Shown here: positions 19,416-62,900 of the stretch, piece after piece
Position numbering within the stretch: position 1 is the first letter of the stretch
How the letters are laid out: every line of letters starts with the position of its first letter
IMG/VR virus record: IMGVR_UViG_2930578203_000001
Span: 1 to 64,000 of that record
Strand: one strand, 5' to 3'
DNA: 64,000 bases
Source: a virus
Taxonomy: Duplodnaviria; Caudoviricetes
Program-made: the position numbers and the translations under genes
The notes under the pieces: generated by a model
What the model saw: the letters and a program-made list of their open reading frames with translations, nothing else
What the model was told of the DNA's origin: nothing
The model's database searches: none

Positions 19416-19468
19416 GCGAGCACGGTAGCGCGCGACGCAAGCCGCGGCCGTCCCTACGGTCCGCGGCC

Positions 19469-19807
19469 ATGCTCACGACCGCCGCACCGCCCCACCCCCG
19501 GATGGCAGCGCTCGCCGTCCGCGCCCGGAACATCGTCGACTCCGGTCTGTGCACTCGAACGTCGGCCGTCCCTGATTGGCTCGCCCGCCTCGACCAGCTC
19601 GACCACCTGACCGCGGCCGCGGCCGCCAACCGCCGGGCCACCCTCGCGATCCTCGACGACGAGGTCGTGTGTGACCTCCTGGTCCTGTCGTACCTGCGAC
19701 ACGGCACCCCCTACGCCCTCTGGGCCGACACCCTCGCCGGATTCGCCGAGGACGTCCTCGGCACCGTCACCTGGGCGCAGCTCCACACGCGGCTGGACGC
19801 GACGTAA
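19469..19807 (+). CDS. hypothetical protein
   Basis: 112-aa ORF, GC3 bias, preceded by the CGCGAC promoter motif. Confidence 0.65.
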   Translation: MLTTAAPPHPRMAALAVRARNIVDSGLCTRTSAVPDWLARLDQLDHLTAAAAANRRATLAILDDEVVCDLLVLSYLRHGTPYALWADTLAGFAEDVLGTVTWAQLHTRLDAT

Positions 19808-19904
19808 GCCTCCCCGGCGGCTCATCGTCCCGGCTCGCTCCCGCCGTCCCTCCGCGGCCGCCGCTCCCGGCCGGCCCGATGTGCGGGGCAGGACGGACGA
19901 ATCC

Positions 19905-21386: not shown

Positions 21387-21811
21387 TGCGCATGACCGGC
21401 TTCGACTCCACGCGCCTGCCCGGGGGCGTGTACCTCGTCTTCCAGCGGTTCGCGGATGAGGGCGCCACCTCTCGCACCTGGTCCCTGAGCGGGCTGGGGG
21501 CGCCGAAGCTGTCACTCAGCACCCTCGTGCAGACCCGAGAGGAGTTCTACGGGCCCCGGGGCAAGCGGCCGCCGGGGCTGTGGAAGCGAGTGCTGCGCGC
21601 GGTTGTCAGGAGCAACGGGCGTACGACGTCGTACTACTGCCCGGACATCCCGCCATCCCGGCTCGGGATCTCCCTGGCCGTGCCCCGCTACGTCCTCCAC
21701 CTGCGATGGGAGACGCGCCGCTTTCGCCAGGCGGCGACCGAGCACCCGGGACGGCCGTCGTGTCCGGCGTGCACGGCCGCGGGCTGGCGCCGGGCCGAGG
21801 ACGCGACGTAA
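21386..21811 (+). CDS. hypothetical protein
   Basis: TGATG coupling, GAGGAG RBS, CPAC motif. Confidence 0.6.
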   Translation: MRMTGFDSTRLPGGVYLVFQRFADEGATSRTWSLSGLGAPKLSLSTLVQTREEFYGPRGKRPPGLWKRVLRAVVRSNGRTTSYYCPDIPPSRLGISLAVPRYVLHLRWETRRFRQAATEHPGRPSCPACTAAGWRRAEDAT

Positions 21812-21912
21812 GGCGCGGCCGCCGTCCACTCTCCCCGCCTCGCCCGGGGCGTGCCCGACCAGGACCGCGACTCAGCGATCCGGCGCCCGGGGCAGACGAG
21901 GAGACCAGTGCT

Positions 21913-24776: not shown

Positions 24777-24997
24777 GCGAGGAGGAGAAGGCCCGCGTGA
24801 AAGCCGCCGAGGGCAAGCTGCCCCTGTGGCTGATGACCGCGGGCATCGACCTCGACGGCACCGCGCCGCGTCTCCCCGTCACCTTCGAGGCCCGCCCGAT
24901 CAGCGTCGAGCGCCTGCTGATGATGGATCGCTCCCCCTTCGGCGACGTCCGCGCCGAGTTCTGGCGCAAGAAGCCGCCGGCCGCCGACAAGGCGTAA
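24767..24997 (+). CDS. small hypothetical protein
   Basis: GC3 bias; overlaps upstream gene. Confidence 0.55.
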   Translation: MPLSEEEKARVKAAEGKLPLWLMTAGIDLDGTAPRLPVTFEARPISVERLLMMDRSPFGDVRAEFWRKKPPAADKA

Positions 24998-25024
24998 CAG
25001 AATCCGGCGCGCGACGTACTACAG

Positions 25025-25235
25025 AGTGCGGCTGGCCCCCTGCCCCGAGATCCCCCGGGGAGAGCACTCCAGCCAGAACCCCCGGCCGGGGTGACGGCCC
25101 TGCTCCACCTCCCCGGTGCAGGGCCTCACCCCGGCAACAGACTTCCGGCAGGCCGCGGCCGCTCAGTGCGTACCTCGCCGGGCCCCCGCGGCCTGGCCGA
25201 CGGTCTGGGCATGGACCGATCGGCCAGGCCGCGAC
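25025..25235 (+). ncRNA. candidate structured non-coding RNA
   Basis: About 200 nt without a convincing ORF; several long hairpins; upstream ECF-like promoter. Confidence 0.35.
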
Positions 25236-25266
25236 ACTAGATCCCCGCGGGCGGCACCTTCCCGCC

Positions 25267-27063
25267 ATGTCCCGCACGCAGCTCTCGCCCACCACCCGCC
25301 CCCGCGTGGTCCCACCGGCCCGGGAGCTGCGCAACGGGCGTCAGCCGGGCGTCAGGTCCCGCGACGCGGCCAACGTCGCCGACCTCCTCCTCCGGGCACC
25401 CGTGCCCGCCAGGCGCCGCGCCTTCAAGCACGACCTCACCGCCCGCGAACGGCCGCACGTCATGCGGGAGGTCGAACGGGTCACCGGCTCGATGTACGGG
25501 CTCTGGCACGACACCCCCAGCGGCTTCATCGAGGACGTCCTCGGCGAAAGCATCTGGAGCCGTCAGCGCGAGATCGTCGACGCCGTCCCGTTCCATAAGC
25601 GCATCGCCGTACCGGCCGGCTTCGGCGTCGGGAAGACCTGGATCGCCGGACGCCTGGTCGCCTGGGCCGGAGCCGTCAACGCCCCCGGGACCATGGTCAT
25701 CGTCACCACCGCGACCCGATTCCGACAGGTACGAAACCAGCTCTGGCCGCACATCAGGAAGACCGTCGCTCGCGCGGGCCTGCCCGGATACTGCGACACC
25801 ACCCAGTGGAAAATCCCTGACCAGTGGGGCAATGACGTCATCGTGGCGTACGGCTTCACGGCGCCCGAGAACGACGAAGCGGCGATGCAGGGCATCCACG
25901 GCACGCCGAAGTTGCTCATCGTCGTCGACGAGGCCGGCGGTATCGCCCGCACGATCGGCAACGGCACGAACAACCTCCTCACTGGCGATGCGCGGATGCT
26001 GGCCATCGGCAACCCCGCGATGGATGACCCGCGGAGTTGGTTCGAGACGCTGTGCGAGGAAGGCGAGGACCCCGCGGAACGGGGAACGGTCACGATCCCT
26101 ATCGCGACGTTCGCCTCCCCGGCCATCACGAAGGAACGGGTCCCGTACTGCAACGACTGTCCCGACGGCGTCCCCCCGCACTCCCTCGCCATCCACCTCC
26201 CCGATCAGGAGTGGGTGGACCGCACGATCCGCGAGTACGGCGAAGATCACCCGTACGTCATCGCCAAGGTGCACGCCCGCTTCCCGAAGGGCGGTGGCGG
26301 CCTCGCGATACCCGTGACCTGGGTCGAGGACGCCCAGAACAACGACGACCCGACCGGGGCCGGCTGGCATCGGCTGTGCGACCTCGGCTTGGAAGGCGAG
26401 ACCGCCAAGCACACTGTGCGCGAAGGCGCCTGGGTCCGCCTCGGCGTCGACGTCGCCGCGGACGGCGGCGACGAATTCACGATCTACAGAGCCGTGGGCG
26501 ATGCGATCGAGATGCGGCACGCCAGCTCTGGCATGGCCAACGACAATCAGGTGAAGGTCGCCGAGAAAATCTTGGAGGAGATCCGCGCGGCGCAGCGCCT
26601 CGCCGACGCCCTGAACTCGCCCCACCCCGTCCGCGTGAAGATCGACAAGAATGGCATCGGCCACGGCGCGACCAGCATGCTGGAGGTCTGGGCGGAAAAC
26701 GGCACGCACCAGGCGCAGATTGTGGGCGTCATGGTGTCCGAGTCACCGAACCAAGACGACCCCGGCGCCGTCATGCGGCCGTACCGCAAGCGTGACGAGA
26801 TGTGGCTGGCCACCAGGGCGCTCCTCCAGCCGGACCCCTCGACCGGCACCGGCCGGCTGCGTCTCCGCGTCGACCGGCAGGCCGGCATCCAGCTCTCCAC
26901 GCCCAAGCTCGGCTCGAACACCGCTGGCTACAGCATCATCGAGTCGAAGAAGACGATGAAGGCCCGCGGTATGAAGAGTCCCGACCGGGCAGAAGCCGCC
27001 CTGCTGGCCGTGTACGAGCCGGAACCGATCAACCCGCCGCGTCGCCGTGGCCTGCTCAACTAG
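25267..27063 (+). CDS. phage terminase large subunit
   Basis: Walker A AGFGVGKT, Walker B IVVDEA, IGNP coupling motif, nuclease motifs GVDVA..GGD and SPDRAEA. Confidence 0.9.
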   Translation: MSRTQLSPTTRPRVVPPARELRNGRQPGVRSRDAANVADLLLRAPVPARRRAFKHDLTARERPHVMREVERVTGSMYGLWHDTPSGFIEDVLGESIWSRQREIVDAVPFHKRIAVPAGFGVGKTWIAGRLVAWAGAVNAPGTMVIVTTATRFRQVRNQLWPHIRKTVARAGLPGYCDTTQWKIPDQWGNDVIVAYGFTAPENDEAAMQGIHGTPKLLIVVDEAGGIARTIGNGTNNLLTGDARMLAIGNPAMDDPRSWFETLCEEGEDPAERGTVTIPIATFASPAITKERVPYCNDCPDGVPPHSLAIHLPDQEWVDRTIREYGEDHPYVIAKVHARFPKGGGGLAIPVTWVEDAQNNDDPTGAGWHRLCDLGLEGETAKHTVREGAWVRLGVDVAADGGDEFTIYRAVGDAIEMRHASSGMANDNQVKVAEKILEEIRAAQRLADALNSPHPVRVKIDKNGIGHGATSMLEVWAENGTHQAQIVGVMVSESPNQDDPGAVMRPYRKRDEMWLATRALLQPDPSTGTGRLRLRVDRQAGIQLSTPKLGSNTAGYSIIESKKTMKARGMKSPDRAEAALLAVYEPEPINPPRRRGLLN

Positions 27064-28821: not shown

Positions 28822-28963
28822 GGGCACTGCCTTCCGTAATGGGGAAAACCGTCCCGGGCGGGACAGCCGCCGAACAGTGCGCGACTCAGCCCGTTAGCGT
28901 CGCGTCCTCAAGGGGCGCGGGGCCTGATCTTCGGGTCCGGTCTCCCCCACTGCCAGACATCGC

Positions 28964-31952: not shown

Positions 31953-33131
31953 TCACTTCGGCGTTTGGGCATCCGGGCTGTGCACCGGAATCTTCCTGAA
32001 TGGGTCCTTGGACGCGTCCTTGGCCGGGCGCACGTACCTCTCCCGGGGGATTCGCGAACCCTTCTTCCAGCGGCCGGCCTCCTCGAGTTCTTCGTCCGTC
32101 GCGCCGTTCATGCCGAGGTCGGTGGCGCCGCCGGCGCGAAGGCTGTGCGAGGACACGGGACGGCCGTCTGTCTTGAGCCCGGCCGCCCCAAACCACAACT
32201 TCACGCGCTCGTTGACGGTCTGCGGGCGCAGGTAGGCACCGCGCTTGGTGGCCCCCCGCCTCTCCCGGGTCTCCGCCGAGGCGACCTTGCCGCTCCGTAG
32301 AACCTCCCGGAATACGGGGCCCGTGGTGATGCCCTGCTCGGCGAGGTAGCGAACCCAGCGGCGCAACCGGAAGACCAAGTTGAGGTCCGGCCGATCGTGG
32401 AGAACGAGCGTCTGTTCCTCGCCCTTGTGGGTCTTGTCTTCAGCGAGCCATACCAACACTCGGTCGTCGAGGATGGTCACGTCCTCGAGGTCCAGGTCAA
32501 CGTCTTCGATACTGCGGCCGAGGAACCGGTACCCGAAGGCGAACATCGCCGAGTCGCGCCAGCCAATCGGCCGGTTGTCGGCTTCAGTCTTCTCCATCAT
32601 CGGGACCAGGTACGGCAGCGTGATGGGGAACGCTTCCTTCCTGCGCAGCGCCCGCTTGTTCTTCTTCCGGTACTGCGTCAGGAGCAGCAGGAAAAGGCTG
32701 TTGTCCGGCTTCTTCCCGGGCGGCATGGACGTCCGGATCAGCGACATGTAGTGCCGGATCGTGGTGACCTTGAGCCCTCTCGCCATCAGGTGGCGGCCGT
32801 ACTCGGTGTACGTCGCCGTCGTGCACGGTTTCGCCACCCGCCCCTGCTCCGCACACCACGCCTCGAACAGTCGCATCGCCGTACGCCGCTGCGGCGAACC
32901 TTCCTCCTCGGCCTCCTTGAGGGCCTGGGCGGTCTCCTCGCTGACGTACAGGTCCCGCTCGGTGTACGTCGCGCGCGGGTCGTCACTGGTTGGGATGCCC
33001 TCGCCGGGCATCAGGACCGTGTGCGCGTCGACGAGCGGGCGGGCAGCCGGCGCCGTGCGCCCCAGCTCCCCGCCCTCGACGATCTCGGCGTAAACGACTT
33101 CCTCGTCCACGTCCTGGTTTCGCAGGCTCAC
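31953..33131 (-). CDS. tyrosine recombinase (Cre-like)
   Basis: RDSAM..GRSIE, KTH, SHSLRAGGAT, GRW and C-terminal RY catalytic residues. Confidence 0.9.
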   Translation of the reverse strand: MSLRNQDVDEEVVYAEIVEGGELGRTAPAARPLVDAHTVLMPGEGIPTSDDPRATYTERDLYVSEETAQALKEAEEEGSPQRRTAMRLFEAWCAEQGRVAKPCTTATYTEYGRHLMARGLKVTTIRHYMSLIRTSMPPGKKPDNSLFLLLLTQYRKKNKRALRRKEAFPITLPYLVPMMEKTEADNRPIGWRDSAMFAFGYRFLGRSIEDVDLDLEDVTILDDRVLVWLAEDKTHKGEEQTLVLHDRPDLNLVFRLRRWVRYLAEQGITTGPVFREVLRSGKVASAETRERRGATKRGAYLRPQTVNERVKLWFGAAGLKTDGRPVSSHSLRAGGATDLGMNGATDEELEEAGRWKKGSRIPRERYVRPAKDASKDPFRKIPVHSPDAQTPK

Positions 33132-33675: not shown

Positions 33676-33683
33676 GGTCCCTC

Positions 33684-48563: not shown

Positions 48564-48847
48564 ACCCCTGCCTGGTGCCCACACGACCGGCTCTGTGGCC
48601 ATCAGGCAGGCAGCAAAGCTCCGCCCGTACGACAACGGCATTCGGCGCGGGCGGAGACGAGGCGCTGGGGCTATACCCCCTGAGCCCCAGCGCCGGCCCA
48701 CTTCGCACGCGATTCGAAAGTTGATCGGTGCCCCTCGAGGCGCCACCGCCCTACGAGACCCACCCGCTGTCGGATCGCCTTTGGCGCCCTGGCGGCACCA
48801 GCACCAGAGCGACACACCTAGGCCCCCAAGAGAGAAGGAAGCTCCGC

Positions 48848-49750: not shown

Positions 49751-49889
49751 CCAGCCGACGGCACCGGTGACCCACCGAGTGCCGCCCCCGGGTCCAGCCC
49801 CGGAGCACGCGGCACGGCCACGGGGCTGGGGCCGGTCGGGCGCCTCTGGAAACCGTCGCGCACCCGGTCCCCCGGGCCCGTGCACGGAT

Positions 49890-50663
49890 CTAGATGCGCG
49901 AGTTGCTCAGCGACTGCCACACAGCGCCGACGAGCGCCCGCGTCGCCCGCGGGACCGACAGGCGCTCGTGCCGGCGGTACAGGGCCCAGTTGTATTGCAC
50001 GAGCGACAGCTTGTTGGAGGACAGCGATCCCGCCTGGTGGGCCCTGTAAATCGCAAGTGGCTCAGCCAGGCCACGGGCGTCAGCGCCGTCCCGCATGATC
50101 GACAGCCACAGGGCGTAGTCCTGGCGTTTGCGCATCTCCGGCATCAGCCTCGTGCCCAGGACATTGCGGTCGTACATGGCGGTGAGTGCACCGATGTGGT
50201 CTCGGACCAGCATCGCGCGGTAGTCCACGTGCTCCCGCGCACGGACCACCCGCCCGTTCGGGACCCAGTCGGTGCTCTCACCGTCGTAGTCGGCGTCCAT
50301 CTTGAAGTACGAGGTGAACGTCAGCGGCGCATCACCTTCCGCGGCGAAGGCGAGCTGTTTCTCGGTCTTCTCAGGAAGCCACATGTCGTCGCTGTCAAGA
50401 AAGGCGATGTAGTCCCCGCGGGCCCGCTCGATCGCGAGGTTGCGGGCCCGGCCCGCACCGCCCCGTTCGGGTGCCGACTGAGGCAGGACGCGCTCGTCCT
50501 GCTTGGCGAACTCGCGGAGCAGGTCCATGGAGGCATCAGAGGACTGGTCGTCGGTGACCAGCAGCTCCAGGTCGCTGTGGGTCTGCGTGAGTACCGATCG
50601 GACGGCCGCGCCGAGGGTGGCTGCCGAGTTGTACACGGGCATCACGACCGACACCAGGGGCAC
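49890..50663 (-). CDS. glycosyltransferase family 2 (TuaG-like)
   Basis: VSVVMPVYN, FLDSDD, QDYALWL, SLSSNK. Confidence 0.9.
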   Translation of the reverse strand: MPLVSVVMPVYNSAATLGAAVRSVLTQTHSDLELLVTDDQSSDASMDLLREFAKQDERVLPQSAPERGGAGRARNLAIERARGDYIAFLDSDDMWLPEKTEKQLAFAAEGDAPLTFTSYFKMDADYDGESTDWVPNGRVVRAREHVDYRAMLVRDHIGALTAMYDRNVLGTRLMPEMRKRQDYALWLSIMRDGADARGLAEPLAIYRAHQAGSLSSNKLSLVQYNWALYRRHERLSVPRATRALVGAVWQSLSNSRI

Positions 50664-51681
50664 AGCACTTCTCCTTGCCAGACCAGGAACGACGGTCCAT
50701 TCAAGCACCGGAATCGAGTAGGAGCTGCCATGCAGATAGTTGTCGCTGGTCAGGGCTATGTAGGGCTTCCCCTGGCCGTACGCGCGGCCGAGGTGGGACA
50801 CCGTGTCGTCGGCTACGACGTGAACACGGACCGTGTCCAGCAGCTCACCGCCGGCCAGTCCTACGTGCGGGACGTGGACTCCTCACGGCTGCGCGCAGTG
50901 CTGGACTCCGGGGCCTACTCCGCGACCGCCGACGGTGCCGCGCTGGCCGGCTTCGACATCGCGGTGATCACCGTGCCGACCCCGCTGCGGGACGGCGTGC
51001 CCGACCTCACCTACATCGAGTCCTGCGCCCGGACACTGGGTGGGCACCTGTGCCCCGGCGCGACGGTGGTCCTGGAGTCCACGAGCTATCCCGGCACCAC
51101 CGAGGAGCTGCTGCTGCCGATCCTGGAAAAGACCTCGGGCCTCAAGGGCGGGGCGGACTTCCTGGCCGGCTTCAGCCCCGAGCGGATCGGAAACAAGCGG
51201 TGGTCGTTCGACAGGACGCCGAAGCTGGTGTCCGGAATCGACGCCAAATCGCTCGACGTGATCAAGAGCTTCTACGACGGCATCTTCGAGACCACGGTGC
51301 CGGTGTCAGGGCCGAAGGTCGCCGAGCTGGCCAAGCTGCTGGAGAACACCTTCCGGTTCGTCAACATCTCCATGATCAACGAGATGGCGATGCTGGCCGA
51401 TGCCCTAGGCGTGAACATCTGGGAGGCGATCGACGCCGCCGCGACCAAGCCGTTCGGATTCACGAAGTTCACCCCGGGGCCGGGGGTCGGCGGGCACTGC
51501 CTGCCCGTCGACCCGATGTTCCTCTCGTGGAAGGCCCAGCAGGAGCTTGGCATCCCGTTCCGGTTCGCGGAACTCGCCGCCGACGTGAACCGGCACATGC
51601 CTGACTACGTCGTCCGGCGCCTCGTGGAAGCACTCAACAAGCGAGGCATGCCGGTCAGCGGATCGCGGATTCTGCTGCTAG

Positions 51682-52551
51682 AGGTTGTCCCGTAACTGCT
51701 GGCCAGAGGTGAGATGATCTTGCCGTGGCTGGTGTGATCACGGCGTCGGAGCCCTCGTGGATAGGCCCGTTCACCGGGCTGAGCCCTCGGCAGTTCAACA
51801 AGCTGATCACCGCGCTGCGGCGTGAGGGGGCCGATCCGGTCCGCAAGGGCCGACCGTGGTCGCTGCCGTTGGAGGACCGGGTGCTGCTGGTGGCCGCGTA
51901 CTGGCGCACCAACCTCACCCTGCGTCAACTCGCCCCGCTGTTCGGCGTCTCGAAGTCGGCGGCCGACCGGATCGTCGCCCACCTTGGGCCGGCTCTCGCC
52001 CTCCAGCCCCGGCGGCGGTTCCGTAAGGAGGCCGTGCTCATCGTGGACGGCACGCTGGTCCCCACCCGCGACCGGACCGTGGCCGCCTCCAGCAAGAACT
52101 ACCGCTACTCCACCAACCACCAGGTCGTCATCGACGCCGACACCCGCCTCGTGGTGGCCGTCGGCAAGCCACTGCCCGGCAACCGCAACGACTGCCGGGC
52201 CTGGCAGGACTCCGGCGCGAAGGCCGCCGTCGGCACCACCCCCACGGTGATCGCCGACGGCGGCTACCGGGGCACCGGGCTGACCATCCCGCACTACCGT
52301 CGGCACAAGGACGAGGAACTGCCGACCTGGAAGGAGGAGCACAACGCCTCCCACCGCAAGGTGCGAGCCCGCGTCGAGCACACCTTCGCCCGCATGAAGA
52401 GCTGGAAGATCCTCCGCGACTGCCGCCTCAAGGGCGACGGCGTCCACCACGCCATGCTCGGCATCGCCCGCCTGCACAACCTCACCCTCACCGGATGACA
52501 GGCAAACAAGCAGGTCAGCCTGCATGCCTCAAATCATTTACGGGACAACCT
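51682..52551 (+). mobile_element. IS5-family (IS112-like) insertion sequence, about 870 bp
   Basis: 14-bp terminal IRs AGGTTGTCCCGTAA/TTACGGGACAACCT flanked by duplicated CTAG (or TA). Confidence 0.9.
51725..52498 (+). CDS. IS5-family DDE transposase
   Basis: IVDGT, ADGGY, RARVEH motifs; N-terminal HTH. Confidence 0.92.
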   Translation: MAGVITASEPSWIGPFTGLSPRQFNKLITALRREGADPVRKGRPWSLPLEDRVLLVAAYWRTNLTLRQLAPLFGVSKSAADRIVAHLGPALALQPRRRFRKEAVLIVDGTLVPTRDRTVAASSKNYRYSTNHQVVIDADTRLVVAVGKPLPGNRNDCRAWQDSGAKAAVGTTPTVIADGGYRGTGLTIPHYRRHKDEELPTWKEEHNASHRKVRARVEHTFARMKSWKILRDCRLKGDGVHHAMLGIARLHNLTLTG

Positions 52552-52902
52552 CTAGGCCTGACCTACAAGTTCAACGCCACCGACCTTCGCAATTCCCCGT
52601 CGGCACGTGTCGCCGAACTTCTCATCGGCCTCGGCGCCGATGTCTGCGGCGCCGAACCCAACATCCCGGACGGCAACGACACCGGGCTGAACGTGCCCCG
52701 AGTCCCTGCCACCCCGGAAGAAGTAGCCGCCGCTGATGCGGTGGTTCTTCTGATGGATCATCCGCGATTCGACCTCGCGATGATCGAGGAGCACGCGCCG
52801 TACGTGCTCGACTGCCGAAACCGCCTGTCCGGAGCGAACGTCGAGACCCTGTAGCTCCCGAACCCTCCTGGCCTGCTGCTGACTTCAACCCCCGGAGTTC
52901 CC

Positions 52903-54288
52903 TTGCGTGAAGAATGGGAGCACGTCCACACGGACTACGCCCGGCCCGCGCATCGCCCCGCTCCTGCCTCGTTGGCCGAGAGCGAGGGCGACTGGCGCCG
53001 CTACCTGGAAGGTGACACCCCGAACGGTTGGCTGATCCAGCACAGCGCGATGGCGGAAGCGCTCGCCAGCGGCCGGCCTATGTACCTGCTGCACACCACC
53101 AGGGACATCGCCGCGATTCGCACCAGCGGTGAGCTGCACGTCTCCACCGGGTGCCTGGTCGGGACCCTGTACTGCTCCCCTCTGGTACCTCAGCGTGAAG
53201 GAATGCGTCCGCACAATCTCGGCGCCTACCTGATGCAGACGAAGCCCGACACCACGCCCATGATCTTCGAGGTCATCCCGGACGCTCCGATCCCAACCAA
53301 GGGTGTGGATTATCTGCATCTCGGTGCCATCCACCTGCGTACCTACCTGCGCTACCGGAGCTTTCTCACCCGGGCCGAGAACGACCAGCTCGACCATGCG
53401 GTGCTGGCCGGACTGGGCTCCGCGGCCGGATTCCTCGACCTGGCCCTGCGCAACGCAGTCGGCCGCACCACGGCGGCCCCCGAGTTCATCGACCAGTTGG
53501 CCGCTGCCGTGCCCGCCGTACCGTTTCTCGGCTACCTGTACTTCGAGGTGCTGTCCGAGTACCTGATGCTCAACTCCACGACTCCGGAGACCAAGGGCTA
53601 CGCCAATGCCGGAGAGCTGAACAACTGGCTGTACAAGCGACTCGCGTTCGCCGCCGTGGACGGCATGCACCGGTTGTTCGACCTGGCCCGCTTTCATCCG
53701 CGCCACCAGCAGCTCGTCCAGCTCATCGCCGGCATGGAACCGGCGCTCGCTCCGGGAGTCGCCGAGTACGTGCGGCAGCGACTGTCCCATCTGTTCGCCC
53801 GGCTCGCGCTGCACCCGTCCCAGGACGCGGCCACGGTGACCTTCCAGGGCATTGATCTCAGCGCACTCCGGTACGTCGCGCCGGGACTGATCGGGCAGAT
53901 GATCTTTCGCGAGATCCGGTACATGCCGCGCTATCGGCAGCTCTACCACTGCTTCGAGAAGGCCAAGGCACTGGAGGCTTGGGACTACTGGAACCACGAG
54001 GGCATCCCCACACCCTTCAACGGCATCCTCCCCAAGGGCGAGATCGGGATACACCCCGTCTACCCCCGGTCGGCCGTCAGGGCGTGGACGGCAAAGCAGG
54101 ACAGCAGAGGCTTCCTGCACCCAGCCCAGGAGATCACCGCGGTTCTCACGCCCCACCTGGCGTCGTGGTGGGCGCCCCCTCGCAGCCGCGGACGGGTGAT
54201 CACCACTGATCCGCAGGTCACAGTGGACCGTAGTGCCCCGTCCTCGGTTCCCGCACACCGATCATCCATCGAGGGGATCTCCGCGTGA
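52903..54288 (+). CDS. hypothetical protein (461 aa)
   Basis: Long ORF coupled by GTGA to the GT4 gene; no motif recognised. Confidence 0.75.
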   Translation: MREEWEHVHTDYARPAHRPAPASLAESEGDWRRYLEGDTPNGWLIQHSAMAEALASGRPMYLLHTTRDIAAIRTSGELHVSTGCLVGTLYCSPLVPQREGMRPHNLGAYLMQTKPDTTPMIFEVIPDAPIPTKGVDYLHLGAIHLRTYLRYRSFLTRAENDQLDHAVLAGLGSAAGFLDLALRNAVGRTTAAPEFIDQLAAAVPAVPFLGYLYFEVLSEYLMLNSTTPETKGYANAGELNNWLYKRLAFAAVDGMHRLFDLARFHPRHQQLVQLIAGMEPALAPGVAEYVRQRLSHLFARLALHPSQDAATVTFQGIDLSALRYVAPGLIGQMIFREIRYMPRYRQLYHCFEKAKALEAWDYWNHEGIPTPFNGILPKGEIGIHPVYPRSAVRAWTAKQDSRGFLHPAQEITAVLTPHLASWWAPPRSRGRVITTDPQVTVDRSAPSSVPAHRSSIEGISA

Positions 54289-55451
54289 CCACGAAACCCT
54301 TGACGATCCTCACCGGCATCAACCGCACGTCCGAGCCTTCGTCCGGCAGCATGATCCTGGTCAGCGACCTCTACCGCGCCATGCCCGACACCCATACGAC
54401 CTTCCTTGGCCGGACACCGGTCCATCAGGTGTGGATGACCGCGTTCGATCACCTGATCCCCCTCTCCACGACGAAACGACCCCAGGGCCCCGGCTTCGAC
54501 ACCTACGTGGACGAGCTGACGCAAGAGGTAGGGACGCTCATCGAGCAGATCCGACCGGACGCCATCCACGCCCAGAACGTTGGGTTCGCCCTCAGCCTCG
54601 CGTTCAGTCGCACCGCCGGAACCATCCCGATCATCTCCATCGCTCACGGCCCCGAAGTGATGGCGGCCGAGCGCAACACGGCGGAACACGAGGCCGTGCT
54701 CGAAGTCGCCGGCGCCAGCGCCGCGATCGTCACCCCGACCTCCGTCCTCGCCGACCGCATCGACCGCCTCACCGGGCGCCGGTTTACCGACCGCATCGCC
54801 ATCATCCCGTGGGGCATCCGTCTGGCCGATGCCCATGTACGCGATCAGCCTTCCGCAGGGACCGGACCCCTGTCTCTGGTGCAAGCCGGTCGCCTGGACG
54901 ACAACAAATCCACGATCACCGCTATCGAATCCCTCGCATTCACCGATCAGCCGCACCACTTGACCGTGATCGGCAACGGACCCATACGGGAGCATCTGGA
55001 ACAGCGGGCTATCGACGCCGGCCTGCGGGATCGGGTCCATTTTCATCCGTTCCTGCCCCGCGCCGAACTGTGGCGCCGTCTGCCGAACTTCGACGCCTGG
55101 GTCTTCACAACCACGGGTCTGGAGGCTTTCGGGCTCGTCCTCATTGAGGCTCAAGCTCACGGACTCCCGGTTGTCTACTCCGATCTTCCCGGAGTGAGGG
55201 AAATCCTCGGAGGCGCTGGCATCGCCTACACTCCGGGCGACCCGCGCTCGCTGGCTGTGGCCCTAGACGAGATGGGCCGGGACTCCCACCAGCGCCGGGC
55301 CCTGAACAAGGCGGCTCTCGATAACGCGCGCCGATACGACATCACTACCACCGGCCGCCAGCTTCGCGAACTGACGCTCCGCGTTACTTCCCCACGGGGC
55401 AGTCATCGGTGGGGCCCGTGCACCAAGGGCCCCACCGATGTTGGGGTGTAA
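54285..55451 (+). CDS. glycosyltransferase family 4
   Basis: PDAIHAQ, GRL...K, EAFGLVLIEA..GLPVV. Confidence 0.9.
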   Translation: MTTKPLTILTGINRTSEPSSGSMILVSDLYRAMPDTHTTFLGRTPVHQVWMTAFDHLIPLSTTKRPQGPGFDTYVDELTQEVGTLIEQIRPDAIHAQNVGFALSLAFSRTAGTIPIISIAHGPEVMAAERNTAEHEAVLEVAGASAAIVTPTSVLADRIDRLTGRRFTDRIAIIPWGIRLADAHVRDQPSAGTGPLSLVQAGRLDDNKSTITAIESLAFTDQPHHLTVIGNGPIREHLEQRAIDAGLRDRVHFHPFLPRAELWRRLPNFDAWVFTTTGLEAFGLVLIEAQAHGLPVVYSDLPGVREILGGAGIAYTPGDPRSLAVALDEMGRDSHQRRALNKAALDNARRYDITTTGRQLRELTLRVTSPRGSHRWGPCTKGPTDVGV

Positions 55452-55527
55452 CAGAACGCGGTCGTTGACGTTCCTGCTGTGAAGGGGGTGGCGCTTTACG
55501 TCAACCCAGCATGGATCCGGAGGAACG

Positions 55528-56037
55528 GTGACGACCGCTATAGCTGCCCTTTCGTCCACGGCCGGCAGGTCGCACCTGCAGGAGTCTCTGTTCTCTTGGC
55601 TCGCCCCGGAGAGCACTCCGCCCATGCCCGATACCAAGGCCCTGGTGGATGCCGACCCGGAAGGCCCGCCCGAGCCCCCAGCCGAGGAGGAGAAGGCCGA
55701 CCTCTCCCATGTCTGGGTTGTGGCCGCGGAGATCGAGGTCATCCCGAAGATTGCGAAGGTGGCCGACTACCGCGGCAGCTTCAAGGCGACCGAGGGCCAG
55801 CGCATCGACGCGCTCGAGGTCTACTGCAAGGGATGCCGGCGCCCGTACGACGAGGTCACCGGCCAGGACTGCTCAGCGAAGATCGACAACCGGCACTTGA
55901 TCGGCGGAGACCAGAGCACCCGGGCTAAGCGGAAGATTCCCGTCCCGCCCCGAAACGCCCGGGTCGTGCCCGGCGGCCGTATCCAGCGCCGCGGTATCGA
56001 GGCTTACGTGGGAGGGGTGTCCCGGCCCCCGCGCTGA
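55528..56037 (+). CDS. hypothetical phage protein
   Basis: GGAGG RBS, CKGC motif, ECF-like promoter upstream. Confidence 0.7.
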   Translation: MTTAIAALSSTAGRSHLQESLFSWLAPESTPPMPDTKALVDADPEGPPEPPAEEEKADLSHVWVVAAEIEVIPKIAKVADYRGSFKATEGQRIDALEVYCKGCRRPYDEVTGQDCSAKIDNRHLIGGDQSTRAKRKIPVPPRNARVVPGGRIQRRGIEAYVGGVSRPPR

Positions 56038-56078
56038 CCCCGCGACACTAACTCCGCCCGCTGTCCACTGTGCGCGGC

Positions 56079-56432
56079 GTGACTACTCAGCGAACCTCCT
56101 GGGCGCTCGCGCGTGAAGCCGCCGGCCTGTTCCTCACCGCGTTCGGCCTGCTCGGCGTCCTCGTGGCGTTGGGCGCACTCCACTGGGCCGCCGGACTCTC
56201 CACCGCGATGGCCGGCCTCCTCGCCACGGGCCTGCTCATGCGCCCGAAGCCGACCGCGGCACCCTGGGCGCACCTTGCCCGTGCCGCCGTCTGCATCCTC
56301 GGCTACGGCGGTCTCACCGGCTGCGCGTTCGCCCTCTGCACCCCCCTGGGCTGGATCGGCGTCTCCCTGGCGGTCGTGCTCCTCGGCCTGTGGCTCACCA
56401 CCCGTGAGCACGAGGACGAGGGGGCCCGCTGA
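56079..56432 (+). CDS. 4-TM membrane protein
   Basis: Hydrophobic; TGATG-coupled to the portal gene. Confidence 0.7.
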   Translation: MTTQRTSWALAREAAGLFLTAFGLLGVLVALGALHWAAGLSTAMAGLLATGLLMRPKPTAAPWAHLARAAVCILGYGGLTGCAFALCTPLGWIGVSLAVVLLGLWLTTREHEDEGAR

Positions 56433-58891
56433 TGCCCCGCCAGTTCCTCCCCACGCTCCGGGGACTCCTCGTTCCGCGCTCCCCTGCTCCCCCACCCGCG
56501 CCAACCGCTGAGACCAAGGACCTGCTCGCGGGCAACGCCTACGTGTCGATGACGTACGCCGGCGTCACCAACGTGTGGGGCACGCCCGGCCGCGCGGACG
56601 GCTGGGACATGGAACGCGTCATCGTCGAGGGCTACGAACGCTCCATCTGGACCTTCAAGTCCATCGAGGCGATCAGTAAGCACGCCAGCACCCTCCCGAT
56701 CCAGATCGGCCGGGGCGGAGACGAACGGCGCTTCGAGGAGACCCTCGACGACCACCCACTGTTGAAGCTGCTCAACAAGAAGGCCAATCCGCTCGAGACC
56801 GGCGATGTCTTCAAGAAACGGCTGAGCGCACAGCTCCTTCTGTCGAAGAAGGGCGTCTTCATCGAGAAGACCTACAGCCGCGGCGGCAACCTCGTACGCC
56901 TCGACCTGCTTCCCCCTGACCGCGTCCAGATCATCCCGGACGACCGCAACGCCGACTACGTGAAGCACTTCGAGTTCACGGACTACAGCGGCCACGTCCG
57001 GGAACTGCTGCCCAAGCACGTCATCTGGATTCGCGACCCCCACCCTCTCGACCCCTTCTGCGGCGTCACCCCGCTTGAAGCGGCGGGCCTGTCCATCGAC
57101 CTGGACGTCAAGGCCCGCACCTACAACATCAGCTTTATTGACAATGACGGCAGACCGGGCGGAATCGTCGGTATCGACCTGGACGGAGTCGACCAGCGCG
57201 AAGTCGACCGCATCCAGAAGCGACTGGCGCCCGGCGCGCACAACGCTGGCCAGCTCACCCTCGTCGGCACCGGGCCCGGCGGAGTCACCTACGTCGACAC
57301 CTCCGCCCGCCCTCGCGAGATGGCCTACGAGACGCTGTCCGGCACCTCCAAGGGCGAGATCCTGGCCGCGTTCGGTGTCCCCGAAAGCATCGTCGGCAAC
57401 GCCTCCGAGCGGACCTACGCGAACGCTGACCGCGAGGAATACAACTTCTGGGACCACACGGAGCTGCCCCACCTCAACCTGATCGCCTCCGGGTTCGACC
57501 CGGACCTCGATGACGAGTGGATCGTCCGCTTCGACACCTCCAGTGTTCAGGCGTTGGAGTTCCCCCGCCGCCAGGCCCGCGAGGAAGCCCGCAAGGAGTG
57601 GGAAGCCGGCCTCATCACGATCGACGAGTACCGGGAGATCGCGGGTCGACCGGCATTCAACGTCCCACAGTCCCGGGCCCTTTGGATCTCTCCGCAGAAG
57701 GCCCCCGTACCCGCCAACGACCAGGACGCCGCCGCACTGGGCCTCGGTCCCGACCCGGCCGCGGGCGGAACACCCGGAGCCGCGCCCACCGGTGCCCCGC
57801 TCCCGCCGGGCACCGCTCCGGATACCGCGGCCGCCGACGTCGCCGCCGCCCGCGCTCTGGACGCTGGCCCGAGCGCCGCCGCGGATGTCGCCGCAGCGCG
57901 GGCGCAGGGCACGCCCCTCGCCCTGCCTGCCGGTTCGACGGCTACCGACGCCGTCGCCGCGGCCCGCGCCGCCACTACCGACAGCGGCCCCGGTGACGCG
58001 GCCGCCGACGTCGACCGCGCCCGCAGCACCCAGGACGCTGCACTCCCCGGCGACGACGCCGAGGACGTCGACGCCGCACGCGCCGCGGTCGAGACCAAGG
58101 CCCTGCCCGAGGACGACGGATACGAGGTCACTGACGACGACTTCGACGCTCTGTCCATGGCCGTGTCCGCGGCCGTCACCGCGCTCCTCGCACGCCAGGA
58201 AGGCGTCATACTCGCCCGGCTCCGCGCCCCGAAGATCCGCAAGTACACGAGGTACTGGGAGCCCGAGAACGACGACGACGTCCGGCACGTCGACGCCGAT
58301 CTCGACCAGGACCGTGTGGTCAGCGCCGCCCGCTGGGCCGAGGAGACCAGCCAATCCCTGACCCCGATCCTTCAGCAGGCGGCCATCGCCACGGCACGCA
58401 AGGTCGGCCAGGCCCTCACCGGCACGGACGAGGTCCCGCCGTCCGCGGCCGCGGCCGCCATCGTCACCGCGGCGTACGCCGGCGAGGCCATCACCGGATT
58501 CCTCACCGAACTCGCCACCGTCCTCCGCGACGCCCAGCACGACGCCGCTGATGTCGGCGACTTGGCGCACGCCGTCGTCAGGTACTACCACTCCGCAGAG
58601 CCTGTTCTGATCGCCCGCGTCGCCGAGACGTGCGCCGTGGCGACCATCAACGGCGCAGCGGACGCCGCGGCAGAGCACGCCGGTCCGCACGTCGTCCGGA
58701 CCTGGGTCACCCGCGCAGACAACCGAGTACGGCCCGCGCACAAGGCCCTCCAGGACAAGACGCTGCCGGTCGGCACCCCGTACACCATCGACGGCGCCAG
58801 CCTCCGCTACCCCGGCGACCCCTTCGCCCCGATCGCCCTCACGATCAACTGCCGCTGTCGCCTGCACTACGCCACCGACTCGAAGGAGTGA
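56432..58891 (+). CDS. phage portal protein fused to a MuF/gpF-like head morphogenesis domain
   Basis: HPLLKLL..NP, G.TPL.A, ILAAFGVP, ITIDEYR portal motifs; C-terminal WVT..D.RVR..H, PGDP, INCRC. Confidence 0.9.
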   Translation: MPRQFLPTLRGLLVPRSPAPPPAPTAETKDLLAGNAYVSMTYAGVTNVWGTPGRADGWDMERVIVEGYERSIWTFKSIEAISKHASTLPIQIGRGGDERRFEETLDDHPLLKLLNKKANPLETGDVFKKRLSAQLLLSKKGVFIEKTYSRGGNLVRLDLLPPDRVQIIPDDRNADYVKHFEFTDYSGHVRELLPKHVIWIRDPHPLDPFCGVTPLEAAGLSIDLDVKARTYNISFIDNDGRPGGIVGIDLDGVDQREVDRIQKRLAPGAHNAGQLTLVGTGPGGVTYVDTSARPREMAYETLSGTSKGEILAAFGVPESIVGNASERTYANADREEYNFWDHTELPHLNLIASGFDPDLDDEWIVRFDTSSVQALEFPRRQAREEARKEWEAGLITIDEYREIAGRPAFNVPQSRALWISPQKAPVPANDQDAAALGLGPDPAAGGTPGAAPTGAPLPPGTAPDTAAADVAAARALDAGPSAAADVAAARAQGTPLALPAGSTATDAVAAARAATTDSGPGDAAADVDRARSTQDAALPGDDAEDVDAARAAVETKALPEDDGYEVTDDDFDALSMAVSAAVTALLARQEGVILARLRAPKIRKYTRYWEPENDDDVRHVDADLDQDRVVSAARWAEETSQSLTPILQQAAIATARKVGQALTGTDEVPPSAAAAAIVTAAYAGEAITGFLTELATVLRDAQHDAADVGDLAHAVVRYYHSAEPVLIARVAETCAVATINGAADAAAEHAGPHVVRTWVTRADNRVRPAHKALQDKTLPVGTPYTIDGASLRYPGDPFAPIALTINCRCRLHYATDSKE

Positions 58892-58896
58892 CCGCC

Positions 58897-59109
58897 ATGT
58901 GGGCAGCGATTTGGATCGCATGGACCGCCGCGTTTGCCGTGGCAGAGGGCATCGCCCTGGCCAATCGGCGCGACGAGGACACCCTGTCGGAGAACGTCCG
59001 TCGCCTGTTCCGTACCCGCACCAGCAGAGCTGGGAGAGCCGCCTTCGCCGTCGGTTGGTTCGGGTTCTCGGGCTGGTTCGCTCTCCACATCCTCACGGAG
59101 AACATGTGA
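58897..59109 (+). CDS. small membrane protein
   Basis: AAGGAG RBS, two TM segments, DTLSE motif. Confidence 0.7.
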   Translation: MWAAIWIAWTAAFAVAEGIALANRRDEDTLSENVRRLFRTRTSRAGRAAFAVGWFGFSGWFALHILTENM

Positions 59110-59118: not shown

Positions 59119-59895
59119 TTACGGGCGCTTCGGAACCAGTTCCTCGGGCAGCCCCAGGTCACGGCATGCCTCTCTGATCAGCTTCTTCATGGGATCGCCC
59201 TTCAGAAGGGGGCTCATCACGCTCGCTGCTTGAAGCAGGGGAACGGGCATCCAGCACAGATCGGCGAGCCGATCGGCAGGCGACTGCTCGTACAAGGTGA
59301 CCTTGTCGTCCTCGACTCCTGAAACGAACGCCGAGGCCGTGAGGTCGGTGGTGTGGGCGTACGAGGACAGGTTCCGGTAAACCGGGTACATCATCGCCGA
59401 TCCGTACGCCTTCACCATGTTGTCGAAGTTGGACAGCTCGCCGACGAGTCGCCCATGTCGCTTGCGTTCCTCCTCCGTGTTGAAGCCGAAGTCGGGCTTC
59501 TCCCCGAGATCGACGCTCTCCGGCAGCTGCCACCCCACACCTTCCAGGTTGGTCAGCAGCTTCTCGCGGGACTTGTACGACTCGGAGACCAATGCCTTGT
59601 AGGCATCGTCACCGTTGTCGGCCAACCAATTGATGGCATAGGCGTGCCCCACAAGGTTCCTCATCAAAGGCACTACCTCGACTGTGAAACCCTGGTCGTA
59701 GAGGGCGATCATGGCGTCTGCCGTTCGGTTGGTGAACCGCCACCACCCTGCGAGAACCGCAAATACGGACGTCGATGTCTCAGCCGACGCCAACTCCTGC
59801 ACGTGTAGGGCAGCCCCAGCCCCCGCTGTCAGTTTCGGCACAATCGCCCGGACTCGCTTCGCGGTCTTCTCATCGGCTCGATACGCAAAGGTCAT
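59119..59895 (-). CDS. DUF5677/HEPN-like protein (moron)
   Basis: LMRNLVG and YRNLSSYAH motifs; opposite orientation, lower GC. Confidence 0.6.
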   Translation of the reverse strand: MTFAYRADEKTAKRVRAIVPKLTAGAGAALHVQELASAETSTSVFAVLAGWWRFTNRTADAMIALYDQGFTVEVVPLMRNLVGHAYAINWLADNGDDAYKALVSESYKSREKLLTNLEGVGWQLPESVDLGEKPDFGFNTEEERKRHGRLVGELSNFDNMVKAYGSAMMYPVYRNLSSYAHTTDLTASAFVSGVEDDKVTLYEQSPADRLADLCWMPVPLLQAASVMSPLLKGDPMKKLIREACRDLGLPEELVPKRP

Positions 59896-59995
59896 AGCGA
59901 GCGACGCTACGCCCCGCGGGAGCAGCACGGCAGCCGAATATGGCCAGGTCGCCGGGGCGCGACGCTAACCACCTGTGCTGTGCATGGTCCGCGCC

Positions 59996-62900
59996 ATGCT
60001 GAATCGCCCCAATGCACAGGCTGAGTCGCAGGACCTGAGTCGCGACCTCGAGGTCAAGGTCACGCGTCGGCCGTGGAACCCTGCTCTGCACCCCCGGGAC
60101 AGCAAGGGCCGCTTCATCGAGACCGGCGGGGTGGTGAGGACCTGGGGCGGCAAGCTCGCGCGCGTCATCCGCGCGCTCCCGCACGACCGCATCCTCGTCC
60201 AGGACCAGACCGGCCCGGACGAGTTCCGCGGCCGCAGGCACACCACCAGTGCCAAGTGGGTCAGCATGGTCGCGCGCCCCGACGGCAGCGCGCCCACCGA
60301 CGACGAAGAGAAGGTCGCCGAAGAGGACGAGCGGCGCACCCAGGACCCGCGCCGCGGCAACGGCGTTGCCCGCGACGACGACGGCGACCCCAACACCCCG
60401 AACGACCCGCACGACCAGGACGACAAGGGCCGCCCGATCGGCGAGGACGACGGCGACGGCCCGGACGACGATGACGACCAGGACGAGCCCGAGGACGGCG
60501 CCCACCCGGTCAACGTCGATGCCCTGCCGAACCAGCAGCACGCCGCCGGGGCCCGGTACGCCGATACCGCCGCCGTCCGCCGCCACTTCATGCAGGTTGC
60601 GGCCCAGCCCGGCACGAGCACGGACATGGCCACCTTCCTGCGCTCGGTGGCACACGACGACGACCTGCGGACCACCTCGTCCGGCCGACTCGTCATCCTC
60701 CTCGACGACCGGCCCGAGCACGCTGGCCGCTGGAACCTCACTGCAACCGGCTCCGGACAGCGCGTCGACGCCGCCGGCACCTTCGCCACCGCCGAGGACA
60801 CCGCCCGATTCGCCGAACACCTCGACAAGACCGCCGTGAACGGTCAGCTCACCAAGTTTCAGCAGCCGTTCGACTTCTCCGACCCGCAACTGGACCGGGA
60901 GGCCCGCGACTGGCGCTCCACCAGGGGCGAGAACATCCAGGGCGCTATCCAGCGGGCCCGTAAGGAGTTCGACGGCACGGACACCGCCCCGGCCTCCCCG
61001 AAGCCCGCACAGGCCCCCTCCGCCGCTGCCGCGGACGGACGGCGCTTCACCACCCTGCAGGACGTCCGCGCGCACTGGACTGACATGCGTACCCGCCTGA
61101 GCCAGGGCGGCCCCGAGACGCAGAACGCCGTGCGGATTCTGGACACCCTGATCAACGACGACCGGCTCAAGCTCGTAGGCCGTGGGCAGCTCGTCACGCG
61201 ACGAGACGAAAACGGCGACTGGCTCCTCGTCGCCACCGGCAGCGGCTACACCCTGCGCGGGCAGACCCTGCACCCCCGCTTCGAGTCGCAGGAAGAGGCA
61301 CAGCGCTTCGGCCGCTTCCTCGTCGCCTCCGGCATCAAGGGCGAGAACGGCGAGCCGCTGGACATGTCCCGCGGTGCCATCAGCCGGTGGCGCTCCGAGG
61401 ACAACCAGTCCTTCAGCGAGGTCGTCGACGAGGCTCTCGCCAAGTGGCAGAGGGAGCGCGGCGGAGACGCCCCGGCCGGACAGAACGCACCAGCGCCGGA
61501 CGCGCCGCAGGCCCATGACGAGACCGGCGCCCCTGCGCAGCCGGAGGCGGAACCCGCACCGGCCCCGGCCGTCCCCGAGGGTGCTAAACCCGTCGACGGG
61601 GTCGACGGCTACCACTACGTCAACGACGGCGGATCAATCACCCTGTATGGCCCCGACGGACAGGTCGCCGCGACCAGCGAGCGCGGCTACCCGCCGAAGG
61701 CCAAGATCGACGGCGTCACCGTGCCCGTCCCTCAGTACCCGAAGCAGGGCGCCGCGGTGATGGCCCGGCTGCACCGCGGCGCCCAGAACCCGGACCAGCG
61801 CGACCGGATCACCGCGGCGTGGGTGATGAAGCCCGGCAAGGACGGCAAGCCCGCCAAGCGGGTCATGGTCTTCCGCGGCACCATCAAGGGCGACGAGCGG
61901 GACTACGACGCCGTGGGCTCCACCCGCGCCATCAAGTGGGCCCCGTCCCTGCGGGCGTACTCGACCCAGTCGAACATGACCGAGGCCACGCGGGACGAGC
62001 GGATCTCCGAGGTCCTGTCCAAACTCGCCCGCCAGGGCCGCAACATCCACGTCACCGACGAGACCGCCGCGGGCAGCCCCGATGCACCGGCCAACGCCGT
62101 CGACGAGACCGAGGCCCTGCGCAAGGCCATCGCCAACGCGGACGACCCTCGCCTGTCGCAGTTGAAGTACGAGCGGTGGGCATCGCTCAACCGCACCCGC
62201 TCTGAGGCCAACCGCAAGCGTCTGAACTCTGAGATCGCAATGATCGACGACGAGTTGAAGCGCCGCCGAATCGAGCGGGACGAGGCCGCCGCCCGGGACG
62301 TCTCCTCGCTCAGCGACGACGACATCGCCAACCGCATCCGCGAGTCACAGGAGGAGCGCGGTACATACGGTGCCCGCAAGGGCCAGGACGCCAACGACGT
62401 CGAGCGGGCCATCTACAGCGAGCGCCGCCGCCGCTCGCAGGCCCTCGTCGACGACGACACCGACCTGACCACGGCCGCCGAGGACGACCTGGCCAAGGCC
62501 CGCGAGACCATCGCCGAACGCGTCCGCATGCACCAGGCCGCCGGCGACGACCCCGAGGCCGAGCGCACCATGCGCCAGGCCCTGCAGAACCGGCACGACG
62601 CCATCGTGGGCGAGCAGCAGAGCCGCCATGCCCAGAAGATCGCCGATCGGCCGCCGGTCGCCGACCTCACCGACGAGGAACTGTCGCAGGAGTACAACGA
62701 CTTGCTCCGGCGCGACTTCCGGAAGGCCCCTCCGGAGGCGCAGCAGGTCCTCGAGGGCCGCATGGAGGACGTCAAGCGGGAGCGCCGCGACCGGGAAAAG
62801 CGGGCCATCACCGACCGCGATGCCCCCGAGAACCTGAGCGATGAGGACCTGAAGGCGGAGTACACCGAGCTTCGCCGCACGCGCTCCTCGTACACCGGGA

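Follow-up and report, generated by a model that had tools for sequence, protein, structure and literature searches.

Phage-encoded sigma factors, such as gp55 of T4 and gp33/34 of SPO1, redirect the host RNA polymerase to late promoters, and a phage sigma factor that directs many late promoters is a well-known kind of system. Here, we analyze a bipartite DNA motif, referred to as class A, in the first 64 kb (the window) of the 121,298-bp virus record IMGVR_UViG_2930578203_000001 (the contig; 68% G+C), whose nearest described relative is Streptomyces phage Gilgamesh (84.6% identity for the capsid protein and 62% for the sigma factor gp92). An earlier note on the window had read seven copies of this motif as promoters of a putative late, partly leaderless regulon. 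The explanation that we favor as a whole, with moderate confidence, is that class A represents a family-private class of late promoters that is most likely read by a phage-encoded extracytoplasmic function (ECF) sigma factor.

In T4 and SPO1, many short phage-specific promoters precede structural and lysis genes, as we propose here. Compared by description, the late sigma factors of these lytic phages are highly divergent and use a −10-type element only, whereas the system analyzed here combines an ordinary ECF-type sigma factor, a temperate actinophage, and bipartite, partly leaderless promoters. What is unusual here is that this ordinary ECF sigma factor is akin to a host developmental sigma factor, that the first block is extended, and that the leaderless fraction is large. 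In T4 middle promoters, a phage-specific box read with MotA and AsiA replaces the −35 element, and a −10 element with its A and T is kept; in class A, the box would lie at about −43 to −28, and most −10 elements begin with C instead of T. The stoperators of cluster A mycobacteriophages resemble class A in being numerous asymmetric, orientation-specific intergenic sites; however, they are single blocks spread across early and late operons, while class A is bipartite and is found only before late-type genes. The Samy prophage described in PMC11302927 is an unrelated phage, and a full-text literature search returned no paper on Gilgamesh, the class A motif, or a regulon under an ECF sigma factor in Streptomyces phages.

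Class A is an enriched bipartite motif ahead of packaging, head, tail, and lysis genes

Class A consists of a first block, (CAGsr)CGCGAC-RYWA-R, and a second block, CAnnGT(CC), separated by 15 (rarely 14) free bases. A position weight matrix (PWM) trained on 37 exact sites from the contig and Gilgamesh lengthened both blocks, with information peaks at offsets −4 to 10 and 25 to 32; in 30/37 sites, the second block begins with C. The core CGCGACRYWA occurs nine times in the window compared with 1.37 expected copies (SD 0.96, maximum 4), and none of 100 dinucleotide shuffles reached nine. GCGAC alone is not enriched in the window (347 copies versus 408.6 expected), and the signal therefore resides in the longer context. 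In the whole contig, the core matches 18 times, with 17 copies on the plus strand, and the full bipartite pattern matches 12 times, while Markov simulations of order 3 and order 5 (60 each) gave a mean of 1.4 core matches (maximum 4 and 6) and 0.03-0.05 full-pattern matches (maximum 1). In a PWM scan, 18 contig sites scored above the top score of 12 simulated contigs. Two weaker PWM sites (77375 and 112684) are backed by orthology and two others (8313 and 78217) are still doubtful; with the doubtful ones included, the contig has about 22 class A sites. A k-mer ranking of the whole contig mainly returned words that reflect codon bias and was of no use for the motif search.

The seven copies of the earlier note are real, with CGCGACRYWA starting at 19431, 19798, 21802, 25230, 28904 (minus strand), 56041, and 59958, and the listed hexamers follow GCGAC after 19 nt (18 nt at 19431). 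The count of seven was too low, as a perfect site at 36483 and a weak one at 8313 had been missed. On the plus strand, the site at 19427-19462 (14-nt spacer, TACGGT, PWM score 25.2; Gilgamesh counterpart at 124890) is followed by the leaderless-type ATG 19469 of an open reading frame (ORF) of 112 amino acids (aa). The next site, at 19794-19830 (CATCGT, 27.6; Gilgamesh 125257), takes up the TAA stop codon of this ORF (19469-19807) within its RYWA and would drive the gene for an N6/N4 DNA methylase (start at 19881 or 19905, end at 21386, plus strand). The site at 21798-21834 (plus strand, CACTCT, 32.7; Gilgamesh 125824, before the gp151 HNH gene) would drive an HNH endonuclease gene (21913/21943-22266, plus strand; phrog_740, E 1.6e-25), and that at 25226-25262 (plus strand, CACCTT, 27.7; Gilgamesh 129063) precedes the leaderless-type ATG 25267 of TerL, the terminase large subunit (25267-27063, plus strand; phrog_2, E 6.8e-19). 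The site at 56037-56073 (plus strand, CACTGT, 28.8; Gilgamesh 28756) is followed by the leaderless-type GTG 56079 of a 117-aa ORF that heads the portal operon, in which a portal-MuF fusion (56432-58891, plus strand; PF04860, E 5.2e-42) and ORF 58888-59109 come next. The site at 59954-59990 (plus strand, CATGGT, 27.4; Gilgamesh 31952) precedes the leaderless-type ATG 59996 of a giant virion-module ORF, which extends on the plus strand to contig position 77035 (5,679 aa from this ATG). 

Two sites have no orthologous site in Gilgamesh. One is the sole minus-strand site, at 28872-28908 (CACTGT, 30.3); a leader of ∼46 nt with a Shine-Dalgarno (SD) sequence separates it from ORF 28821/28827-28402 (139-141 aa), which has no family match and, among phages, has a homologue only in Streptomyces phage Sycamore (a hypothetical protein). 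Thus, while TerL, portal-MuF, the giant ORF, the methylase, the HNH gene, and ORF 19469 stand as targets named in the earlier note, its tail-like gene is unsupported. The other is the site at 36479-36515 (plus strand, core at 36483, CACCGT at N15, 24.1), which would drive 36560-37195 with its weak RusA-like match. The doubtful site at 8309-8345 (plus strand) has a perfect first block and a poor, displaced second block (CCCACT/CACTGG); its PWM score of 17.1 compares with a null maximum of 17.2, and no orthologue was found.

Over the whole contig, class A precedes TerL, the portal operon, the giant ORF, and the capsid, tail tube, minor tail, fiber, TerS operon, and lysin genes, in addition to the methylase gene, the HNH gene, and a few genes of no assigned function. 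A scan of the full element, expected to find the motif before capsid and tail genes, thus did so outside the window, and also before lysis genes. Each of the 22 contig sites has the orientation of its downstream gene. The gene map leaves 10.4% of the contig uncovered, and 16/18 core sites fall mostly into this fraction, typically 4-20 nt past the preceding stop codon. The core site at 89978 is upstream of the true start at 90064 of an ORF that the gene map had overextended, and only the one at 36483 is truly coding, in the final 73 nt of ORF 35644-36555. We also considered class A as a methylation site and rejected this reading because the motif is strand specific and restricted to intergenic DNA.

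At 7/22 contig sites (starts at 19469, 25267, 56079, 59996, 77411, 88602, and 98883) and 10/24 Gilgamesh sites, an in-frame start codon lies 6-8 nt past the second block and lacks an SD sequence; these include the four starts that had been placed 6-8 nt past the hexamer in the window, i.e., ATG 19469 (8 nt), ATG 25267 (6 nt), GTG 56079 (7 nt), and ATG 59996 (7 nt). As far as can be judged from sequence, this spacing fits leaderless mRNAs. The remaining sites have an SD-type word ahead of the predicted start, and their leaders are mostly 28-33 nt, some 40-75 nt, and in one case ∼210 nt. The predicted starts match the deposited Gilgamesh annotation at 18/24 sites. The annotated starts of gp45, gp48, gp50, and gp144 disagree with the promoter-predicted ones, and for gp45 and gp48 the annotated ATG falls inside the second block. 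Gilgamesh TerL (gene 1) is annotated from base 1; ATG 129101, which lies 36 nt before the end of the record and 7 nt past the second block of a class A site, reads in frame across the record ends, and the deposited protein therefore seems to be 12 codons short.

The bipartite pattern is conserved among relatives and restricted to the phage

We compared the contig with the whole record and annotation of Gilgamesh (MN234216; 129,136 bp; host S. lividans), in which no regulatory features are annotated. Gilgamesh contains 19 exact core sites, all on the plus strand, and 18 contig sites have an orthologous partner. In ungapped anchored alignments of these 18 pairs, the first and second blocks were both 84% identical, compared with 65% for the spacer, 76% for the predicted start region, and 50-54% for the flanks. 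Several pairs swap bases within the RYWA degeneracy, e.g., GTTA versus ACAA, and, because they differ within what the pattern allows, it is the pattern that is kept, beyond mere sequence. Searching viral contigs and Streptomyces genomes with the sigma factor, we retrieved 29 additional loci (73-94% identity). All 29 carry the motif at two fixed places near the sigma gene, i.e., the promoters of the lysin gene and of the ParB-like/TerS operon. When the lysin promoters of 28 relatives were aligned, CA..CGCGAC...A and CAC.GT.C were invariant and the spacer was free.

Bipartite conservation, orientation, noncoding position, the fixed distance to start codons, and orthologous sites in ∼30 relatives back the promoter reading of the earlier note, and we consider it very likely that class A is a promoter class. 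Each site would start a transcript 6-8 nt past the second block, which would begin either at the start codon or with an SD-containing leader, commonly of ∼30 nt.

Two further observations concern the promoters near the sigma gene. In the ParB-like/TerS operon, a dyad, GGYGACGTCRCC, is present at contig ∼112720-112760, ∼25 nt past the second block; it is conserved at the same place in the 29 relatives, in either orientation, and is followed by the ∼210-nt leader. It could serve as an operator or be related to parS or pac sites. For the lysin leader, we tested a hairpin between SD and anti-SD sequences and found no support for it (RNAalifold, −0.1 kcal/mol; mean fold z score of −0.02 for 28 sequences). 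In Gilgamesh, a 16-bp palindrome, TTGCCCAATTGGGCAA, has four copies (46147, 53006, 53068, and 94110), and this form is absent in the contig.

In four whole host genomes (7.2-9.2 Mb), 27/27 full matches lie inside the prophage and on one strand, and the reversed pattern, as a control in the same genomes, matched once. The earlier note had pointed to an equal frequency in random intergenic DNA of similar G+C content as evidence that would speak against a promoter; in these four genomes, the chromosome outside the prophage lacks the motif. The sigma factor is present (E <= 1e-40) in 12 of 401 sampled Streptomyces genomes, which have 5-13 matches each. Among the other 389 genomes, one has six matches, three have three, and the rest have at most two (Fisher P = 4e-22 for at least five matches versus sigma presence). 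The exception with six matches (G026) carries a distant relative of the phage (67% identity for the capsid protein and 57% for the portal) in which the three-gene sigma operon is also present, at 37-40% identity (37% for the sigma factor). Among the 401 genomes, clusters of at least five matches are confined to phage-bearing genomes.

We suggest that only one family of phages, Gilgamesh-like temperate siphoviruses of Streptomyces, uses class A, with ∼20-24 copies per genome. Because its targets are packaging, head, tail, and lysis genes, class A would unite these scattered genes in one late morphogenesis program; the late timing is inferred from target-gene functions alone. As the host has no regulon of its own for class A, the specificity would have to come from a phage-encoded factor, which we regard as likely.

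The phage encodes a single, BldN-like ECF sigma factor

The earlier note had suggested a search for sigma or activator genes outside the window, and the sole sigma-family protein found in the contig is encoded there, at 118556-119224 on the minus strand; an integrase gene lies at the contig end. It is a 222-aa protein of the ECF type (PF04542, E 7.2e-19; PF08281, E 1.2e-12; TIGR02937, 105 bits with a cutoff of 42.9). With the BldN equivalog model TIGR02952, the phage protein scores 102.5 bits, under the cutoff of 206.45, and the host genes closest to it (37-38% identity) score 260-263 bits. Its closest solved relative is chain 6dxo_A (99 bits), from what we take to be the BldN-RsbN entry. Judged by sequence, its nearest cellular kin is BldN. 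The region 4.2 helices of the two proteins are alike; the phage protein differs from BldN in a conserved basic C-terminal extension of ∼45 aa. Sigma region 2 and the region 4.2 helix (GAVRTLTVRxLRKLA) are invariant among proteins from 94% to 60% overall identity.

Upstream of the sigma gene lies an invariant TAnnnT block, GGTTATGCT; a scan for consensus sigma-70 promoters and terminators around the sigma operon found nothing. Because this block is of the host type and is neither class A nor class C (see below), the sigma factor is probably made early by the host polymerase and would act one step earlier in the cascade than its proposed targets.

The sigma gene is followed, at contig 116631-118572, by genes for a charged 128-aa protein (p128), whose start overlaps the sigma stop by 17 nt, and a 504-aa single-pass membrane protein (p504). 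In 29/29 relatives and in the G026 phage, both partners are kept, and the sigma stop overlaps the start of the p128-type gene. In proteins of the p504 type (∼500 aa), a conserved N-terminal domain of ∼90 aa is followed by a basic stretch, a single hydrophobic helix, and a long tail rich in Pro and Thr. This topology equals that of RsbN as described in PMC6101532; neither p504 nor p128 has a sequence or fold match to RsbN. Searches of a protein atlas with both proteins gave no usable match, a PDB sequence search gave nothing for p504 and only E ∼1 for p128, and Foldseek of the p128 model against PDB gave nothing at E <= 0.001; the AlphaFold2 models of the two proteins are of low confidence (predicted local distance difference test scores of 57 and 69).

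Register of class A with the BldN promoter and two further promoter-like classes

As a reference for BldN-type promoters, we used the block shared between host bldN and its neighbor in three genomes. According to PMC4255298, this adjacent gene is rsbN and has its own BldN-dependent promoter. The block, CGTAAC-N17-CGTT, is invariant in the three genomes, and class A is in the same register: in the host, the G of GT lies 20 positions from the last A of CGTAA, as does G29 from A9 in the phage. CGTAA is exact in 10/37 phage sites. The first block ends in TAAC in 13/37 sites, of which nine have 17 nt from that C to the G of GT; this is the canonical ECF spacing, equal to that of class C and one under that of the host rsbN-side block. 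Class A sites without TAAC carry AAG, and the −10 element is nGT(CC) rather than CGT. Class A further differs from the BldN promoter in the extra upstream CGCGAC and in the base after AA: at offset 10, aligned with the hallmark C of AAC, C is found in 0/37 sites.

A second phage-private motif, class C, has the form GTAACA-N15-(C)GACGTAC, with 16 nt from AAC to CGT. It is present in the window at 24994-25019, 37160-37186, and 55448-55473 and in the contig at 112610 (minus strand), where it precedes the region upstream of the TerL promoter, ORF 37236, ORF 55528, and the replication operon, respectively. Gilgamesh has two exact-pattern orthologues and a third, looser one at 28112. Strict class C matches in five host genomes lie inside prophage regions (5/5), and in five genomes with a diverged phage sigma factor, 9/9 matches are in contigs that also bear class A. 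G026 gave no class C match, which is not readable as absence because its contigs break off where such sites would be expected: only 138 nt separate the TerL start from a contig end, and the gp22-like gene could not be located in this genome.

Other promoters of the phage appear to be of the host type and use TACTAT or TATGCT. Among them, class B has the −10 block TG(G/C)TGTACT(A/G)T and lies ahead of several copies of a hairpin leader of ∼45 nt. This leader has a loop, GGAGAGCA(A/C)C, followed by GTCCCGAACGAAGGA, 7-9 nt, and the start codon, and its stems co-vary, with 6/10 pairs changed on both sides. Copies are located in the window at 5398 and 5782 (both minus strand), 6009, 7003, 8465, 34761, and 40693 and in the contig at 107731 (minus strand); a related copy is found near 2700 (minus strand) and 35608 of the window. 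Gilgamesh has a leader of the same design with ACCACGAAG..GAAGGA. The leader is not in Rfam, and no Rfam family reached its gathering score in the window. In kind, it resembles the start-associated sequences of cluster K mycobacteriophages.

Which factor reads class A?

In view of the register with the BldN promoter, the TAAC-bearing sites, and the C-first second block, the most economical reader of class A is an ECF-type holoenzyme that contains the phage sigma factor. Taken by itself, the proposal that the single, BldN-like ECF sigma factor of the phage is the specificity factor is in our view an even call. Several observations weigh against it. (i) The association of the sigma gene with the motif is a co-occurrence within one phage lineage and no proof that the one reads the other because any conserved gene of the lineage would associate alike. 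(ii) ECF sigma factors usually autoregulate; neither a class A nor a class C site lies upstream of this sigma gene. (iii) In the G026 phage, the recognition helix of the sigma factor differs (GTIRVLQCRALAKL versus GAVRTLTVRALRKL), and class A is unchanged. (iv) With 15-16 nt, the first block is longer than what sigma region 4 usually reads. (v) The second block keeps the A at position 2 and the T at position 6, both of which are needed by the primary sigma factor. (vi) Class C is more textbook ECF/BldN-like than class A and could be the true target of the sigma factor, in which case class A would require a second factor.

From these points, an alternative can be constructed in which the host polymerase with HrdB reads class A, helped by a phage activator or a sigma-appropriating factor, while the ECF sigma factor serves class C, e.g., at the replication operon. 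Class C is indeed phage private and combines the ECF hallmarks AAC and CGT at a distance of 16 nt, and GCGACA-N18-CAnnGT is like a weak TTGACA-N17-TAnnnT in which the A and T are retained. An activator would also account for a box too long for sigma region 4 alone and unaltered where the sigma helix has diverged, and the family has several conserved helix-turn-helix proteins. However, HrdB leaves unexplained why the second block begins with C instead of T in 30/37 sites and why CC is conserved after it, the CGCGAC-RYWA box lacks dyad symmetry, and the BldN-type register of class A and the TAAC in 13/37 first blocks also speak against this alternative. No MotA- or AsiA-like protein turned up, although no search was aimed at one. 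We consider this alternative possible but clearly less probable than reading by the phage sigma factor.

We also entertain, as a doubtful extension, a three-tier phage-private program with class B early, class C second, and class A late, switched by a captured BldN/RsbN module. Here, the early class would be TG(G/C)TGTACTAT with the conserved hairpin leader, and the sigma factor would be kept in check by p128, to which it is translationally coupled, and/or by the RsbN-like p504, such that head, tail, and lysis genes would fire only upon a membrane or envelope signal. The replaced C of AAC and the added CGCGAC would keep the phage and host regulons orthogonal.

It is very improbable that the first block is a repressor site of the stoperator kind, at which the immunity repressor would block elongation through late genes in the lysogen. 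The many asymmetric copies, which have one orientation to transcription and lie in short gaps just past stop codons, are as expected for such sites, but the second block at its fixed N15 (or N14) spacing would be unexplained, as would start codons without an SD sequence 6-8 nt past this block, which imply that the transcript must start there; moreover, the minus-strand early and replication operons have no class A sites. Least probable of all is a motif acting in RNA, e.g., a site at which a long late transcript is processed into mRNAs with leaderless 5′ ends: the sites do lie within one long codirectional gene array, and read-through transcripts would therefore contain them, but two short blocks with a free spacer of fixed length and no mutual base pairing are the signature of protein-DNA recognition.

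Genomic context

We based the gene map on third-position G+C content and scanned the proteins against Pfam, PHROGs, and NCBIfam. Gilgamesh and the contig share a common genome plan (TerL, portal-MuF, giant ORF, capsid, and sigma factor). They differ in that the FtsK-like block is inverted, some downstream genes differ, and the methylase here occupies the place of gp150.

The giant ORF, the largest target of the proposed regulon, is placed between the portal and the prohead protease. Its second quarter contains a methyltransferase (Eco57I-like) domain and SNF2/ResIII/Helicase_C domains, and its counterpart in Gilgamesh, gp48, has 4,620 aa. We assume that it may be a packaged antirestriction protein of the DarB kind. 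Downstream of it and outside the window are genes for a prohead protease-NUDIX fusion, capsid, tail tube, tape measure, minor tails, and fiber; farther contig genes include a minus-strand replication block, a ParB-like gene, and genes for TerS, lysin, and a single-stranded DNA-binding protein.

Three other regions of the window stand out. The segment at 8877-19148, with a lower third-position G+C content of 0.77-0.81, encodes a 1,866-aa DEAD/Helicase_C/MrfA-Zn protein, a PIN_8 protein, and 718-aa and 315-aa proteins without a family match; it looks like a defense-type insertion. The block at 31953-43635 comprises a tyrosine integrase gene, a RusA-like gene, a PNKP-phosphatase gene, and an FtsK/SpoIIIE-like gene. 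In Gilgamesh, this block is reversed (genes 8-27) with integrase genes on its flanks, and it may be an invertible, or formerly independent conjugative, module. The accessory region at 43688-55451 encodes GGACT-family and GNAT proteins, an NsdA-family regulator (273 bits), an anti-sigma-kinase-like HATPase_c_2 protein, a DUF6415 protein, a TauD-like dioxygenase, UDP-glucose dehydrogenase, and a GT4 glycosyltransferase, together with an insertion sequence with a DDE transposase (51734-52498).

Implications

Our analysis raises the question of how one ECF sigma factor relates to two private promoter classes. It also allows gene starts to be corrected by means of class A, as in the case of Gilgamesh TerL, and predicts leaderless late genes in a phage. 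Because no match lies outside the prophage in the four whole host genomes, the compact pair of sigma factor and promoter, which is predicted to be silent in the host, is a candidate orthogonal expression switch for Streptomyces engineering. Altogether, class A provides a concrete regulatory map, open to testing, for large temperate Streptomyces phages of a family that is widespread yet unstudied.

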